Shown: piece by piece, positions 25,601 to 31,600 of the stretch
Numbering within the stretch: position 1 is the first letter of the stretch
Layout of the letters: every line of letters begins with the position of its first letter
From: Escherichia coli
GTDB taxonomy: Bacteria; Pseudomonadota; Gammaproteobacteria; Enterobacterales; Enterobacteriaceae
Direction: 5' to 3' (one strand)
Assembly: GCF_009931435.1 (NCBI RefSeq)
Contig: NZ_CP043414.1
Length of the DNA: 64,000 bases
Made by a program: the position numbers

Positions 25601-28600
25601 TGAATCACTGGTCATCAAAAAAGAGAGTGATATTGAACCGTTAATTGTCGTGAAAGAGTAATAGATGTTGTAGCAACCCCGTACTGATTATGAAGAATAA
25701 TCAGTGCGGGGATTAATCAAAATATTCAATATTTATATATTTCAATGTCTATTCATTTTATATGTGAATATATTAACCAGCAGAATACCTGTGTTCTAAT
25801 TATTTTTAAATATTTTGAATGAATGCTTATTGTTTGATACCCAAGAAATAACTCTCTTTTTATCGTTAAAAGATGATATTTCACTTTGCCCGCGCCGTGA
25901 AAGTCACTGATAATGCGTTCGTTCGTAAATTCAAAATGGCGTAATCTAATATATGCTAAATTTATTTGTTGGCCTTGATATATACACAGGGCTTTTGTTA
26001 TTACTTGCTCTGGCATTTGTGTTGTTCTACGAAGCAATCAATGGTTTTCATGACACGGCGAATGCGGTGGCAACCGTTATTTATACTCGTGCCATGCAGC
26101 CACAGCTTGCCGTGGTGATGGCGGCATTTTTTAACTTTTTTGGCGTATTGCTAGGCGGACTTAGCGTTGCCTATGCCATTGTCCATATGTTGCCAACCGA
26201 TTTGTTGCTGAATATGGGGTCAACTCACGGCCTGGCGATGGTCTTTTCCATGCTGCTGGCGGCGATTATCTGGAACCTGGGAACGTGGTTCTTTGGTTTA
26301 CCGGCCTCCAGTTCGCATACCTTGATTGGTGCGATTATCGGCATCGGTTTAACCAACGCGCTTTTAACCGGCTCATCGGTGATGGATGCGTTAAACCTGC
26401 GTGAAGTGACCAAAATTTTCTCCTCGCTGATTGTTTCCCCTATCGTCGGCCTGGTCATTGCGGGAGGCCTGATATTCCTGCTGCGCCGCTACTGGAGCGG
26501 GACGAAAAAGCGTGACCGTATTCACCGCATTCCGGAAGATCGCAAAAAGAAAAAAGGCAAACGTAAGCCACCATTCTGGACGCGTATTGCGCTGATTGTT
26601 TCCGCTGCGGGCGTGGCGTTTTCGCACGGCGCGAACGACGGACAGAAAGGGATCGGCTTGGTGATGCTGGTACTGGTGGGGATTGCTCCTGCTGGTTTCG
26701 TCGTCAATATGAATGCGTCCGGCTATGAAATTACCCGTACCCGCGATGCCGTCACCAACTTTGAACACTATCTGCAACAGCATCCTGAACTGCCGCAGAA
26801 GTTGATTGCGATGGAACCTCCATTGCCTGCGGCATCGACTGATGGCACGCAAGTAACGGAGTTTCATTGTCATCCGGCAAATACCTTTGATGCGATTGCG
26901 CGCGTTAAAACGATGTTGCCAGGTAATATGGAAAGCTACGAACCGTTAAGCGTGAGTCAGCGCAGCCAGCTGCGCCGCATTATGCTGTGCATCTCTGATA
27001 CCTCTGCGAAGCTGGCGAAACTGCCAGGCGTCAGTAAAGAAGATCAGAACCTGTTGAAAAAACTGCGCAGTGATATGTTAAGCACCATTGAGTACGCTCC
27101 GGTGTGGATCATCATGGCGGTAGCACTGGCGCTCGGCATTGGCACCATGATTGGCTGGCGTCGTGTAGCGATGACCATCGGTGAGAAGATTGGTAAGCGC
27201 GGCATGACGTATGCGCAAGGCATGGCGGCACAAATGACGGCGGCAGTGTCTATCGGCCTTGCCAGTTATATTGGGATGCCCGTCTCCACAACGCACGTAC
27301 TCTCATCTGCGGTAGCAGGGACGATGGTGGTGGACGGCGGTGGGTTACAGCGTAAAACGGTAACCAGCATCCTGATGGCGTGGGTGTTTACTTTACCGGC
27401 GGCGATTTTTCTGTCCGGTGGGTTGTACTGGATAGCATTGCAGTTGATTTAACCTTCCTGAAAATGCCCGGTCCTGACGATCGGGCATTTCCATTTTTGA
27501 CTAGTGATAACCACACGCGGTCATAAAATCCGTAATCGCTTTTTCTGCATCAACCAGCACCTTTTCCAGTGGCTGATTGGCGTCGATATCAACCAGTTGT
27601 GCACCACCAAAGGTTAACTGTGGCGTTATGGCAATCTTTCTCGCCAGCGATTCCCGTTTATGGTCGGGTTTACGCGCGCAGGCAACTTCAAGGTCAACAT
27701 TGAGTTTGATAACCAGATCAGGCTTATGGCTCGCCATCCAGTGAAATGCTTTACGTTCCTGGCTTGCCAGCCATGAGACAAACCGGCCGCCTTCAACGTT
27801 AGGTGGGAACACCGTACCATCGTAAGCGCCAGGAATTTGGTCCTGAGGATAACGATCGGTTAAGACAATCAGCCCGCGACGACGGCAGGCGAGCATATGA
27901 CGAAAGCGTAACAGTCGGCGGGCGACGAAAGCGGTGATCACCAGGGCCGGAACCGGACCCGGCAATTTTTTTGCCGTTTTCACTTCATTTTTTTCAATAG
28001 TCTTGTGCAGAGACTTTCCCATCAACGGTAATTTTGTCACTGCACGACCGACATTTCCGGCCTGTTTTCCTAAATGAACTCTTTCGGCAGCACCATATTT
28101 TTCGACAACGGTAATAAGATGTTCACACACCGTTGACTTGCCTGAACCATCGCTACCAATAACGGCAATTAATGGAGGTGTTATTGACTGCATGAATATA
28201 TCCTTAAATTTAAATATCCATCCAAAATATTTATTTGGTTAATATGTTTTTATGAAAGCGTAATTCAGGTCAATGTCACAATTAACCATTGTCACAATAA
28301 GGTTGAACGGATATTCTGAGCACGGACCACGTAATATTCAATACATTATTTGCTGCCGGGTTTTTCGTGAATCAACGTAATATGTCAATAATTAATTCCA
28401 CGCCAGTGCGTGTTATTGCCATTGTAGGATGTGATGGTTCAGGTAAATCGACCCTCACGGCAAGCCTGGTAAATGAACTGGCAGCAACAATGCCAACAGA
28501 ACACATTTATCTCGGGCAATCGTCCGGGCGAATTGGCGAATGGATTTCACAGCTCCCTGTTATTGGCGCACCTTTTGGGCGTTATCTGCGAAGTAAAGCG

Positions 28601-31600
28601 GCACATGTGCACGAAAAGCCCTCCACACCGCCTGGCAATATTACTGCGCTGGTTATTTATCTGCTTTCCTGCTGGCGGGCGTATAAGTTTCGCAAAATGT
28701 TGTGTAAAAGCCAGCAAGGCTATCTGCTCATCACCGACCGCTACCCGCAGGTTGAAGTGCCGGGTTTTCGCTTTGATGGCCCGCAACTGGCAAAAAACAC
28801 GGGCGGTAACGGCTGGATAAAAATGTTAAGACAGCGCGAGCTCAAACTTTACCAATGGATGGCGTCTTATTTGCCCGTATTGTTGATTCGTCTTGGCATT
28901 GATGAACAAACCGCGTTTGCGCGTAAACCTGACCACCAACTGGCGGCGTTACAGGAAAAAATCGCTGTTACGCCGCAACTGACATTCAATGGCGCAAAGA
29001 TCCTTGAACTGGATGGTCGGCAACCAGCCGATGAAATTCTGCAAGCGTCACTACGCGCAATTCACGCCGCGCTTTCCTGATCACCAAATGGATAGGGGAT
29101 GATTTAACGAATGGATGCACTACAAACACAAACTGTTAATAGTACAACCGCGCCGCAGCCCAACTACATTCCGGGGCTGATTGCGGTGGTCGGGTGTGAT
29201 GGCACCGGTAAATCCACACTGACCACTGACCTGGTGAAATCGCTGCAACAACACTGGCAAACCGAGCGCCGCTATCTGGGGCTGCTCTCCGGCGAAGACG
29301 GCGACAAAATCAAACGGTTGCCGCTCGTTGGCGTCTGGCTGGAACGGCGACTGGCGGCCAAATCCTCGAAAACCCAAAGCATGAAAACCAAATCTCCGGC
29401 GCTATGGGCGGCGGTGATTATGTACTGCTTCTCGCTGCGAAGAATGGCGAATCTACGCAAGGTTCAGCGACTGGCGCAAAGTGGCGTTCTGGTGGTCAGC
29501 GATCGCTTCCCGCAGGCTGAAATTTCGGGCTTTTATTATGACGGACCGGGGATTGGCGTCGAGCGTGCGACCGGGAAAATCAGCATGTTTCTGGCACAGC
29601 GCGAACGGCGTTTATACCAAAAAATGGCGCAATACCGTCCTGAATTAATTATTCGTTTGGGGATTGATATTGATACTGCCATCTCCCGCAAGCCTGACCA
29701 TGACTATGCCGAGCTGCAGGACAAAATCGGTGTCATGTCGACGATTGGCTATAACGGCACAAAAATTCTTGAGATTGATTCCAGAGCGCCCTACAGCGAA
29801 GTGCTGGAACAGGCACAGAAGGCGGTTTCTCTGGTTGCAATCGTTTCTGACCGCCGAAGTTTAACTTAAGGTTGGCGGGATACTTTTTACTATCAACGAT
29901 AAGGTCAGGCTGAATTGGCGGGGTTTAACATCAAACATTGGTTTGCAGATGGCGCGTTTCGCACCATTATTCGCAATAGCGCCTGGTTAGGCTCCAGTAA
30001 TGTCGTGAGCGCTTTGCTGGGTCTGTTGGCGCTCTCGTGTGCCGGTAAAGGGATGACGCCCGCCATGTTTGGCGTACTGGTGATTGTGCAATCGTACGCC
30101 AAGTCGATCAGCGATTTTATTAAGTTTCAGACATGGCAGCTGGTGGTTCAGTACGGAACGCCAGCCTTGACCAATAATAATCCGCAGCAATTTCGCAATG
30201 TCGTCTCATTTTCCTTCTCGTTGGATATCGTCAGCGGCGCGGTGGCGATTGTCGGCGGCATTGCCTTACTCCCTTTTCTTTCCCATTCATTAGGTCTGGA
30301 TGACCAAAGCTTTTGGCTGGCAGCGCTGTATTGCACGCTCATTCCTTCAATGGCTTCCTCCACACCGACCGGCATTCTGCGTGCGGTAGATCGCTTCGAT
30401 TTGATTGCTGTACAGCAGGCGACGAAACCTTTTCTGCGCGCAGCGGGGAGCGTCGTAGCCTGGTATTTTGATTTTGATTTTGGTTTTGCGGGTTTTGTTA
30501 TTGCCTGGTACGCATCGAATCTGGTTGGCGGCACCATGTACTGGTGGTTTGCCGCGCGCGAATTACGCCGCAGAAATATCCATAACGCCTTCAAATTGAA
30601 TTTGTTTGAGTCTGCCCGACACATTAAAGGCGCGTGGAGTTTTGTCTGGTCAACCAACATTGCCCACTCCATCTGGTCGGCACGTAACTCGTGCAGCACA
30701 GTGTTGGTGGGGATCGTGTTAGGACCCGCTGCCGCCGGGTTATTTAAAATCGCCATGACATTCTTCGATGCCGCCGGAACGCCAGCGGGTTTACTGGGCA
30801 AAAGTTTTTACCCAGAGGTGATGCGTTTAGATCCGCGCACCACCAGACCGTGGTTGTTAGGCGTGAAGTCCGGTTTACTGGCGGGCGGAATCGGTATTCT
30901 GGTGGCGCTCGCGGTGTTGATCGTCGGCAAGCCGCTCATTTCGCTGGTGTTTGGCGTTAAGTATCTCGAAGCGTATGACCTGATTCAGGTGATGCTTGGC
31001 GCAATTGTGATTTCGATGCTGGGCTTCCCACAGGAGTCATTGCTATTGATGGCGGGAAAACAGCGCGCTTTTCTCGTGGCGCAAACCATCGCCTCAATCG
31101 GCTACATCGTATTGCTGTTCATGTTCTGTCATCTGTTTGGCGTGCTGGGGGCTGCATTTGCTTACTTCGGTGGGCAATGTCTGGATGTGGTGCTCTCGTT
31201 AATTCCAACCTTAAAGGCATTTTTTCAGCGCCATTCCTTGCTTTATAACGCAGCCGGAGAGAAATCCTGATGATGAGAAAATATTTCCCGCTTGAGGCGA
31301 GCGAGCGTCTATTTATTGCAGTTGAAGAAGATGATGTCGTTGATGCGCAGGTCAGTTTACCGCCGACTATCGCAACAGGTTGTACCACCGAAATCATTCA
31401 TGATAATTACGCGTTATGCCTGCAATTCTGGCTGAATGGCGTTGATCGTCAGGAATTACTGCGTTTAATCCACAAACAAGCCAAAGGCGAGGGGCTTACG
31501 GCTGACGAGCGTAAACAGTTTAAATATATGCGGGCGCGTTATAAGCATCTACGTTTTGCCCAACGGTTGTATTTAAAAAAGCATCAGGCCGGATTTTTAT

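Follow-up and report, generated by a model that had tools for sequence, protein, structure and literature searches.

A conserved three-kinase module with a CHAD-fold partner in the sphingolipid locus of Escherichia coli

A 64,000-nucleotide stretch of Escherichia coli DNA (NCBI RefSeq assembly GCF_009931435.1, contig NZ_CP043414.1; the whole stretch is called the window below) contains three open reading frames at positions 27501-29869, all of which were confirmed. They are yghT on the minus strand and yghS and yghR on the plus strand, named here after the E. coli genome annotation. This three-kinase module of the proteobacterial sphingolipid locus is real, ancient and conserved; it is misnamed as dTMP (thymidine monophosphate) kinase, and it has a hidden CHAD partner. 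The segment from 27000 to 31500 is matched in 5082 of 5426 complete E. coli genomes and belongs to the E. coli chromosome. The module and its boundaries are as follows.

27462..27490, between the convergent genes pitB and yghT: candidate bidirectional terminator, a GC-rich hairpin with a 12-bp stem and flanking T/A runs (consensus match only)
27501..28193, minus strand: yghT, predicted P-loop phosphotransferase of the thymidylate kinase superfamily, 230 amino acids (aa)
28194..28366: divergent intergenic region between yghT and yghS, 173 bp, 31% GC, with a sigma-70-like site at 28289-28317 upstream of yghS
28367..29080, plus strand: yghS, predicted phosphotransferase of the thymidylate kinase fold, 237 aa
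29111..29869, plus strand: yghR, predicted phosphotransferase of the thymidylate kinase superfamily, 252 aa

A sequence-only reading of the window had described yghT as divergent from yghS-yghR, and the 173-bp, AT-rich intergenic region confirms this arrangement. The gap between yghS and yghR is 30 bp. The same reading had the three genes flanking the lipid locus; they are instead all found at one end of it. The hairpin probably serves as a bidirectional terminator bounding the module, as judged from its sequence. Promoter and terminator scans of the window gave no excess over the shuffled expectation, and this includes the sigma-70-like site upstream of yghS.

The three proteins are paralogs, as had been proposed, and their similarity lies far beyond chance (BLASTP E-values of the order of 1e-47 to 1e-62). 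YghT shares 37% identity with YghS (E 4e-55) and 34% with YghR (E 4e-47), YghS and YghR are 43% identical (E 1e-62), and the three-way alignment includes 55 invariant columns. The Walker A motif GxDGxGKST is common to all three, and it is observed as GSDGSGKST at residue 13 of YghT, GCDGSGKST at residue 21 of YghS, and GCDGTGKST at residue 28 of YghR. Three further blocks, which had also been read as common to the trio, are exact only in two of its members. TDRYPQ and ARKPDH are found at residues 112 and 173 of YghT and at residues 123 and 185 of YghS, while YghR shows SDRFPQ at 130 and SRKPDH at 192. The block TPQLTF.G is present in YghT and YghS and missing from YghR.

Among 61 diverse homologs, the invariant residues (YghS numbering) are G21, D23, G24, G26 and K27 of the P-loop, R125 and P127 of DRYPQ, D137, E158, and R186 of RKPDH. 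Inside each of the T, S and R ortholog groups, the catalytic motifs are at least 95% conserved, including the Arg of the DR motif and the helix Arg. The acceptor-side loop is specific to each group: HLGKQxGN in T, YLGQSSGxIG in S, and YLGLxSGExGDKIK in R. The conservation of the catalytic motifs in all groups, together with the distinct acceptor loops, fits three active enzymes with three different acceptors.

Chimeric kinases are observed in some E. coli (P0003 and P0001), joined exactly at the conserved TDR[YF]PQ block. In both, the N-terminal half is that of YghS. One continues with the C-terminal half of YghT, pointing to an inversion between the divergent genes, and the other with the C-terminal half of YghR, pointing to a deletion between the tandem genes. 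The presence of these chimeras suggests that the T, S and R paralogs still recombine.

The structure model of YghS shows the thymidylate kinase fold, in which 167 of its 237 residues align to thymidylate kinase. Relative to thymidylate kinase, the YghT, YghS and YghR proteins (YghRST) carry a helical elaboration of about 60 residues, with extra helices between strand 2 and strand 3. This fold and the catalytic motifs kept in all three proteins agree with the earlier description of them as kinase-like. The profile of the 61 homologs matches thymidylate kinases with an E-value of 1.6e-12, covering the P-loop, the DRY strand and the lid. In this alignment, the helix Arg of the family (R103 in YghS) pairs with Arg80 of Plasmodium falciparum thymidylate kinase, which we take to be the residue that binds the dTMP phosphate in thymidylate kinase structures. 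YghT, YghS and YghR probably form a distinct branch within the thymidylate kinase superfamily, one recruited to the E. coli-type sphingolipid locus of Proteobacteria.

The RefSeq annotation (PGAP) uses the names "dTMP kinase" (yghT and yghS) and "nucleoside/nucleotide kinase family protein". Taken literally, the names would make these proteins true dTMP or nucleotide kinases serving nucleotide metabolism, and the fold, the P-loop and the DRY motif agree with such a role. The family-level scores do not. With TIGR00041, the dTMP kinase equivalog, the three proteins score 25.7, 24.7 and 31.1 bits where 83.25 are required, and none of them exceeds 25.7 bits with PRK07933, whose cut-off is 193. The search against Pfam returned no significant family for the three kinases (best Thymidylate_kin i-Evalue 0.019), and no above-threshold match to NCBIfam was obtained. 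The helical elaboration, the alignment of only 167 of the 237 YghS residues, and the conserved operon partners, which are lipid and export genes, also speak against nucleotide metabolism. Furthermore, tmk is essential in E. coli K-12 although yghT, yghS and yghR are intact there. A service in nucleotide metabolism is therefore considered extremely improbable. Judged by these scores, which lie far under the equivalog cut-off, the name "dTMP kinase" for yghT and yghS is an over-call, and the over-annotation is probably systematic and spreading across Enterobacterales.

A precedent for such a misnomer is PPK3 of Sulfolobus acidocaldarius (Saci_2019/Saci_2020), a heteromeric polyphosphate kinase whose two subunits are annotated as thymidylate kinases and share their operon with sixA, ppx and a CHAD gene (PMC12995831; Hofmann et al., J Biol Chem 2026). 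PPK3 has not kept the residues that bind dTMP, and it shows no dTMP kinase activity (PMC12995831). The sequence-only reading had named clear homology to a kinase of nucleotide metabolism as evidence that would tell against a lipid role. Such homology is found at the superfamily level (E 1.6e-12), while the equivalog cut-off is failed. The lipid role is left standing because of this failure and because acceptors other than nucleotides are documented in the superfamily, as in PPK3 (PMC12995831). A role in anti-phage defence was also considered and rejected: PADLOC returned only P-loop-level noise, with E-values of at least 2e-4 over about 25 residues.

The genes on the 3' side of yghR, and those that follow them, are listed below.

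29915..31270, plus strand: yghQ, MOP-superfamily protein (Wzx-like, Polysacc_synt_3), candidate flippase for the modified lipid; its match to the NCBIfam MOP flippase model is sub-threshold
31270..32094, plus strand: gene for a 274-aa "hypothetical protein", a predicted divergent CHAD-fold protein (fold comparison)
32103..32666, plus strand: paralog of the YtfJ family (TIGR01626, 209 bits against a cut-off of 151)
32696..33766, plus strand: lptF2, LptF paralog, candidate sphingolipid extractor (RefSeq annotation)
33763..34842, plus strand: lptG2, LptG paralog
34877..36049, minus strand: spt, serine palmitoyltransferase (RefSeq annotation; the E. coli BL21 ortholog was assayed, PMC9386255)
36049..36297, minus strand: acpR, specialised acyl carrier protein
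36329..37243, minus strand: reductase of the NAD-dependent epimerase/dehydratase family ("epi", CC_1164 homolog), needed for dihydroceramide synthesis
37240..38958, minus strand: aasR, specialised acyl-acyl carrier protein synthetase (fatty acyl-AMP ligase)
39321..40463, plus strand: yghO, acyl-CoA N-acyltransferase ("aca"), needed for dihydroceramide synthesis

The five genes yghQ, the 274-aa gene, the YtfJ-family gene, lptF2 and lptG2 continue in the direction of yghR, and the junctions between them are short or overlap. The Serratia ortholog of YghQ matches Pfam PF13440. For E. coli B, aasR, acpR, spt, epi and aca/yghO have been published as the genes of dihydroceramide synthesis, and Spt, AcpR and AasR have been assayed (PMC9386255). 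E. coli BL21(DE3) carries the sphingolipid locus (PMC9386255), and the locus of E. coli UTI89 was drawn in a preprint on Caulobacter LptF2/G2 (bioRxiv 10.64898/2026.04.12.717747).

A scan with one genome per species revealed 248 relatives of the kinases. From these, 79 loci were fetched, and 13 proteins of the window were mapped on them by tblastn. The complete trio was found in 63 of the 79 loci, all from other species. In the neighbour-joining tree, T is monophyletic and R is monophyletic. Members of one group (T, S or R) share an identity of 0.57-0.61, as against 0.34-0.41 for members of different groups. The local duplication proposed earlier is thus ruled out as a recent event: T, S and R are three old ortholog groups that extend across Gamma-, Beta- and Alphaproteobacteria.

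The association of the kinases with the lipid locus, which had been suggested from the window, is seen across these loci as well. yghS lies directly upstream of yghR on the same strand in every one of the 63 trio loci. Spt is encoded within 10 kb in 49 of them, and either Spt or LptF2/G2 in 57. yghQ was found in 49 of the 79 loci. The gene order of the E. coli type is T, then S-R-Q-CHAD-YtfJ-F2-G2, then the spt block, then yghO. In Serratia, the spt block is on the other side of T, while R has yghO and the spt block as neighbours in Erwinia, Rosenbergiella and Sodalis. At least three gene orders occur in Enterobacterales, with further ones in Rhodanobacteraceae, Methylotenera (Methylophilaceae) and Rhodocyclaceae, and the trio stays contiguous throughout.

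Foldseek searches against AFDB50 extended the family to Sphingobium (S. cloacae has three paralogs), Novosphingobium, Zymomonas, Acetobacter, Gluconobacter and Commensalibacter. Several of the genera with family members either are sphingolipid producers or carry spt loci (for the spt loci, PMC9386255).

Copy number and domain architecture vary in some of the loci. Two YghT-type copies in addition to S and R, making four kinases, are encoded in L054 from a metagenome-assembled genome of Halioglobus (3708-4382 and 6556-7254), as well as in L056, L077, L078, L081 and L082. Halieaceae loci add an LptA-like gene. In Acetobacteraceae-like genomes, two kinases are fused into a two-domain protein of 430-510 aa (L002 10001-11317, Oecophyllibacter; P0121-P0123). 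The cluster with this fused kinase carries His_Phos_1 and GT4 genes, and spt is not adjacent.

The 274-aa protein encoded at 31270-32094 is, on the basis of structure comparison, a divergent CHAD-fold protein, newly identified here. The comparison indicated two four-helix bundles related by pseudo-twofold symmetry. R60, R88, K92, H93, R95, H105, H193, R196 and H237 are invariant in the family, and K197 is nearly so. The two halves include RAxxKHLR and FHxxRK, respectively, each followed by an xQD or GxxHD element. The family is very divergent at the sequence level: one of 21 homologs matches Pfam CHAD (PF05235), at 2e-5, and the E. coli protein itself shows no Pfam or NCBIfam match above threshold. 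The family profile found no match in a sequence search of the PDB even at an E-value of 10, and fold comparison alone revealed the CHAD relationship. The gene is present in 61 of the 79 loci, and in distant taxa it usually adjoins yghT. CHAD domains are polyphosphate-binding modules (PMC6537752).

The CHAD-fold partner brings the module close to PPK3, whose two thymidylate-kinase-annotated paralogs share an operon with CHAD and SixA genes (PMC12995831). The E. coli-type locus likewise pairs thymidylate-kinase-fold paralogs with a CHAD-fold protein, and the clusters of the Acetobacteraceae type add a His_Phos_1 phosphatase (SixA/PhoE family). By this analogy, a hetero-oligomer of the paralogs, working with the CHAD-fold protein, would make free polyphosphate from ATP or regenerate nucleoside triphosphates from polyphosphate, and it would supply or buffer phosphate or energy while the lipid is not modified directly. 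Several differences make such a function unlikely. The arginine of the DRX motif has been lost in the regulatory subunit of PPK3 (PMC12995831), whereas it is kept in all three E. coli paralogs. The profile of the family matches the Sulfolobus tokodaii homolog of the catalytic PPK3 subunit (2plr/5h70) only at the P-loop with an E-value of 1e-5, weaker than its match to canonical thymidylate kinases (1.6e-12). A tblastn search with E. coli Ppx and Ppk1 as queries covered the window and 85 related loci and gave no match. PPK1 and PPX are part of the E. coli repertoire already. The conserved partners of the kinases act in lipid synthesis, flipping and Lpt-type export, or are lipid-phosphate phosphatases and methyltransferases.

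These last two activities were recognized when the unassigned open reading frames around the core genes were clustered and the cluster representatives annotated. The recurrent families are:

PAP2 lipid-phosphate phosphatases of two families (Pfam PAP2 2e-23 and 5e-13), in 19 and 15 loci
LmtA-like lipid A 1-phosphate O-methyltransferase, directly beside YghT, in 9 loci
OlsC/LpxO-like acyl 2-hydroxylase, in 12 loci
GT4 glycosyltransferase, in 8 loci
LptA-like protein, in 5 loci

As predicted from their sequences, several of these families (PAP2, LmtA-like) would act on phosphate attached to membrane lipids. The LmtA-like family and the two PAP2 families accompany the kinase/CHAD core in loci from Betaproteobacteria, Gammaproteobacteria and Sphingomonadales, and enterobacterial loci lack them. 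Examples of the LmtA-like and PAP2 genes are found at L051 9057-9974, L084 10836-11576, L062 10696-11385 and 11713-12255, and L054 5884-6450.

The wider kinase family comprises 2169 representatives at E-values of 1e-3 or lower. A large sister group of proteins about 500 aa long combines an N-terminal NTP_transf_5-like domain, which has a DLDLLV motif, with a YghS-like kinase domain (L005 7223-8731; P0162, P0168). These proteins sit in Wzx/Wzy polysaccharide clusters, adjoined by MOP flippase, GT4, Wzy-like and sulfotransferase/ATP-sulfurylase genes. Natural fusions were also found, one of a MOP flippase with NTP_transf_5 and the kinase (P0214), and one with GT4 (P0251). The fusion in P0214 indicates that the kinase domain is functionally tied to MOP flippases.

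Two further interpretations of the kinases were considered. In one of them, the kinases together with YghQ serve another envelope acceptor, such as lipid A 1-phosphate, polyprenyl phosphate or a lipid-linked sugar, and the link to sphingolipids reflects only a shared envelope function. It is in line with the Wzx/Wzy clusters and with the fusions to MOP flippase, GT4 or NTP_transf_5, as well as with the resemblance of the accessory enzymes to the lipid A modifiers LpxE, LmtA and LpxO. In Nitrotoga, the genes that accompany YghT and CHAD encode GT4, PAP2 and a NodU-like carbamoyltransferase, and no spt lies closer than 10 kb. The full trio, unlike single T-like genes, has Spt within 10 kb in the 49 of 63 loci noted above, and these represent several orders and several gene arrangements. 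In addition, the dedicated LptF2/G2 pair implies a cargo other than lipopolysaccharide, and enterobacterial loci lack a glycosyltransferase. Another acceptor is thus rather unlikely.

In the other interpretation, the three proteins are ATPases with a regulatory or energising role: they bind and hydrolyse ATP, thereby driving or gating YghQ or LptF2/G2, and transfer no phosphate. The existence of a flippase-kinase fusion is compatible with this, as is the absence of an LptB paralog from the locus. MOP flippases are not known to be ATP-driven. The DR clamp Arg, the RK of the lid and the acceptor-side Arg are strictly conserved, and these are features of phosphotransfer. YghRST lack ABC signature motifs, and an ABC-type ATPase for LptF2/G2 was ruled out on fold and motifs. 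Moreover, LptF2/G2 of Caulobacter use the housekeeping LptB (bioRxiv 10.64898/2026.04.12.717747). Such an ATPase function is considered very unlikely.

The favoured interpretation is that YghT, YghS and YghR are active phosphotransferases that give ceramide a head group of phosphate, possibly oligophosphate, before the lipid is exported by YghQ and LptF2/G2. The chances that it is right or wrong are judged to be about equal. The following scheme proposes an acceptor, an order of steps, an oligophosphate product and a transport route for a module whose fold, motifs, orthology, neighbourhood and CHAD-fold partner are observed. The first step, ceramide synthesis by Spt, AcpR, AasR, the reductase and YghO, has been demonstrated for the enzymes of E. 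coli B (PMC9386255). YghT, YghS and YghR would then act one after another on the ceramide head group at the cytoplasmic face, each with its own acceptor loop. All three retain the Lys of the P-loop, the clamp Arg of the DR motif, Arg/Lys in the lid and the Arg of the helix, and the chemistry is therefore most likely the addition of phosphate to phosphate, similar to that of nucleoside monophosphate kinases. The product would be ceramide mono-, di- and perhaps triphosphate, with phosphoanhydride bonds on a lipid-linked phosphate. The CHAD-fold neighbour may bind the oligophosphate, YghQ may flip the modified lipid as a MOP flippase, and LptF2/G2, probably with LptB, may extract it to the outer membrane. 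The phosphate could then be trimmed or capped, in other lineages, by PAP2 phosphatases and LmtA-like methyltransferases.

The fold and motifs, the conserved neighbourhood, the three old ortholog groups, the CHAD partner, the accessory genes for lipid phosphate, the flippase-kinase fusion and the precedent of PPK3 all speak for the favoured interpretation. In Caulobacter, it is the anionic head group that makes LptF2/G2 necessary (bioRxiv 10.64898/2026.04.12.717747).

Several points weigh on the other side. The support consists of guilt by association and of an acceptor deduced through homology. A separate enzyme for the first O-phosphorylation was not identified. YghT and CHAD occur without spt within 10 kb, for example in Nitrotoga, and the acceptor may not be specific to ceramide. 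The wider kinase family sits in Wzx/Wzy polysaccharide clusters. To our knowledge, the described sphingolipids of sphingomonads and Acetobacteraceae, which carry the family, are glycosylated and not phosphorylated. About 540 complete E. coli genomes, K-12 among them, keep the kinases without the ceramide genes. The searchable literature holds no biochemical or lipidomic data on E. coli sphingolipids or YghRST.

A bolder form of this interpretation is that the locus makes an undescribed lipid class, ceramide with a linear oligo- or polyphosphate head group. The kinases would build the chain stepwise, the CHAD-fold protein would hold it, YghQ would flip the lipid, and LptB-LptF2/G2 would deliver it to the outer-membrane surface. 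This form is doubtful. If it were true, oligophosphate ceramide would be a strongly anionic companion or substitute for lipopolysaccharide in most E. coli and many Proteobacteria. It would also represent the first lipid-directed use of the thymidylate kinase fold and the first role of CHAD outside polyphosphate granule metabolism.

The distribution among the complete E. coli genomes differs between the parts of the locus. The three kinase genes are present at a coverage of at least 80% in 4604 of the 5426 genomes (about 85%). The segment from the CHAD gene to aasR occurs in 4066, and about 75% have the full sphingolipid locus. In K-12 MG1655 (L088, record 3129043-3134823), yghT, yghS and yghR are intact, and an IS5 element (insH9) separates a truncated yghQ from yghO. 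The genes for the CHAD-fold protein, the YtfJ-like protein and the reductase are missing, together with lptF2, lptG2, spt, acpR and aasR. This IS5-associated loss of the ceramide half probably explains why no K-12 phenotypes are reported and why yghRST are still "y-genes". K-12 yghS is listed as bound by H-NS and is induced 3.1-fold by SlyA overexpression (PMC5797941). In the literature on yghR, yghS and yghT, only list-type mentions were found: the SlyA/H-NS regulon table, and a knockout panel without a K-12 phenotype.

The allele at 27501-29869 of the window is at least 99% identical in only 17 of the 5426 complete genomes and about 96% identical in nearly all others. The window thus represents a minority lineage, or else its allele of the locus is recombinant.

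An anionic sphingolipid, if that is what the kinases make, would be a so far overlooked constituent of the outer membrane in commensal and pathogenic E. coli, Serratia, Erwinia, Pantoea and others. Sensitivity to polymyxin and cationic peptides, the barrier function and host lipid signalling could all be affected by it, as is the case for the anionic sphingolipids of Caulobacter.

Four known systems can be compared with the module. Tmk (TIGR00041, PF02223) shares the P-loop, the DR[YHF] motif and the fold with YghRST. In contrast to Tmk, YghRST have the family-specific motifs DRYPQ, DG and RKPDH and the context of a lipid locus, and the true tmk is elsewhere in the genome.

The ceramide-diphosphoglycerate pathway of Caulobacter, with CpgB and CpgA/C/D (PMC10331486, PMC11324152, PMC12275187), likewise places a kinase in a proteobacterial sphingolipid locus with LptF2/G2 and a putative flippase. 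CpgB and YghRST are soluble cytoplasmic kinases, and the proposed role, making the sphingolipid anionic, is alike. The enzymes themselves differ. CpgB is a ceramide kinase similar to diacylglycerol and sphingosine kinases, with a GGDG motif and no P-loop (PMC10331486), and on this published description homology to YghRST, with their P-loop and thymidylate kinase fold, was ruled out. The rest of the Caulobacter head-group pathway consists of nucleotidyltransferases, a CDP-alcohol-transferase-like enzyme and a phosphoesterase (PMC11324152), and none of these is thymidylate-kinase-like. The earlier idea of a lipid head-group kinase is partly supported, by the locus context and the kinase fold but not by any kinship with the ceramide kinase CpgB (PMC10331486). 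The E. coli-type locus has none of the Caulobacter head-group genes and contains three thymidylate-kinase-like kinases and CHAD instead; the E. coli-type head group therefore appears to be made by a different chemistry. LptF2/G2 is common to both systems; in Caulobacter the pair is required when the anionic sphingolipid is made, and it binds LptB (bioRxiv 10.64898/2026.04.12.717747).

Known CHAD proteins (PF05235; PDB 6qv5, 3e0s and 6rn5; E. coli YgiF) have the same two four-helix bundles with conserved His, Arg and Lys in both halves. Both they and the 274-aa protein are encoded beside phosphotransferases of the thymidylate kinase superfamily. The 274-aa protein is found in a lipid-export locus and not in an operon of polyphosphate metabolism.

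PPK3 is the closest precedent. Like the YghRST module, it consists of side-by-side paralogs of the thymidylate kinase fold named dTMP kinase, with a CHAD gene. Its acceptor is a phosphate chain and not dTMP, while the P-loop, DRX and lid motifs are kept. PPK3 is composed of one catalytic subunit and one inactive subunit without the DRX Arg, whereas all three of YghRST keep the DR Arg. PPK3 operons carry ppx and sixA, whereas the E. coli-type locus carries ceramide synthesis genes, a MOP flippase gene and LptF/G paralogs. Taken together by analogy, PPK3 and YghRST point to a recurring pairing of thymidylate-kinase-like proteins with CHAD for phosphoanhydride chemistry.

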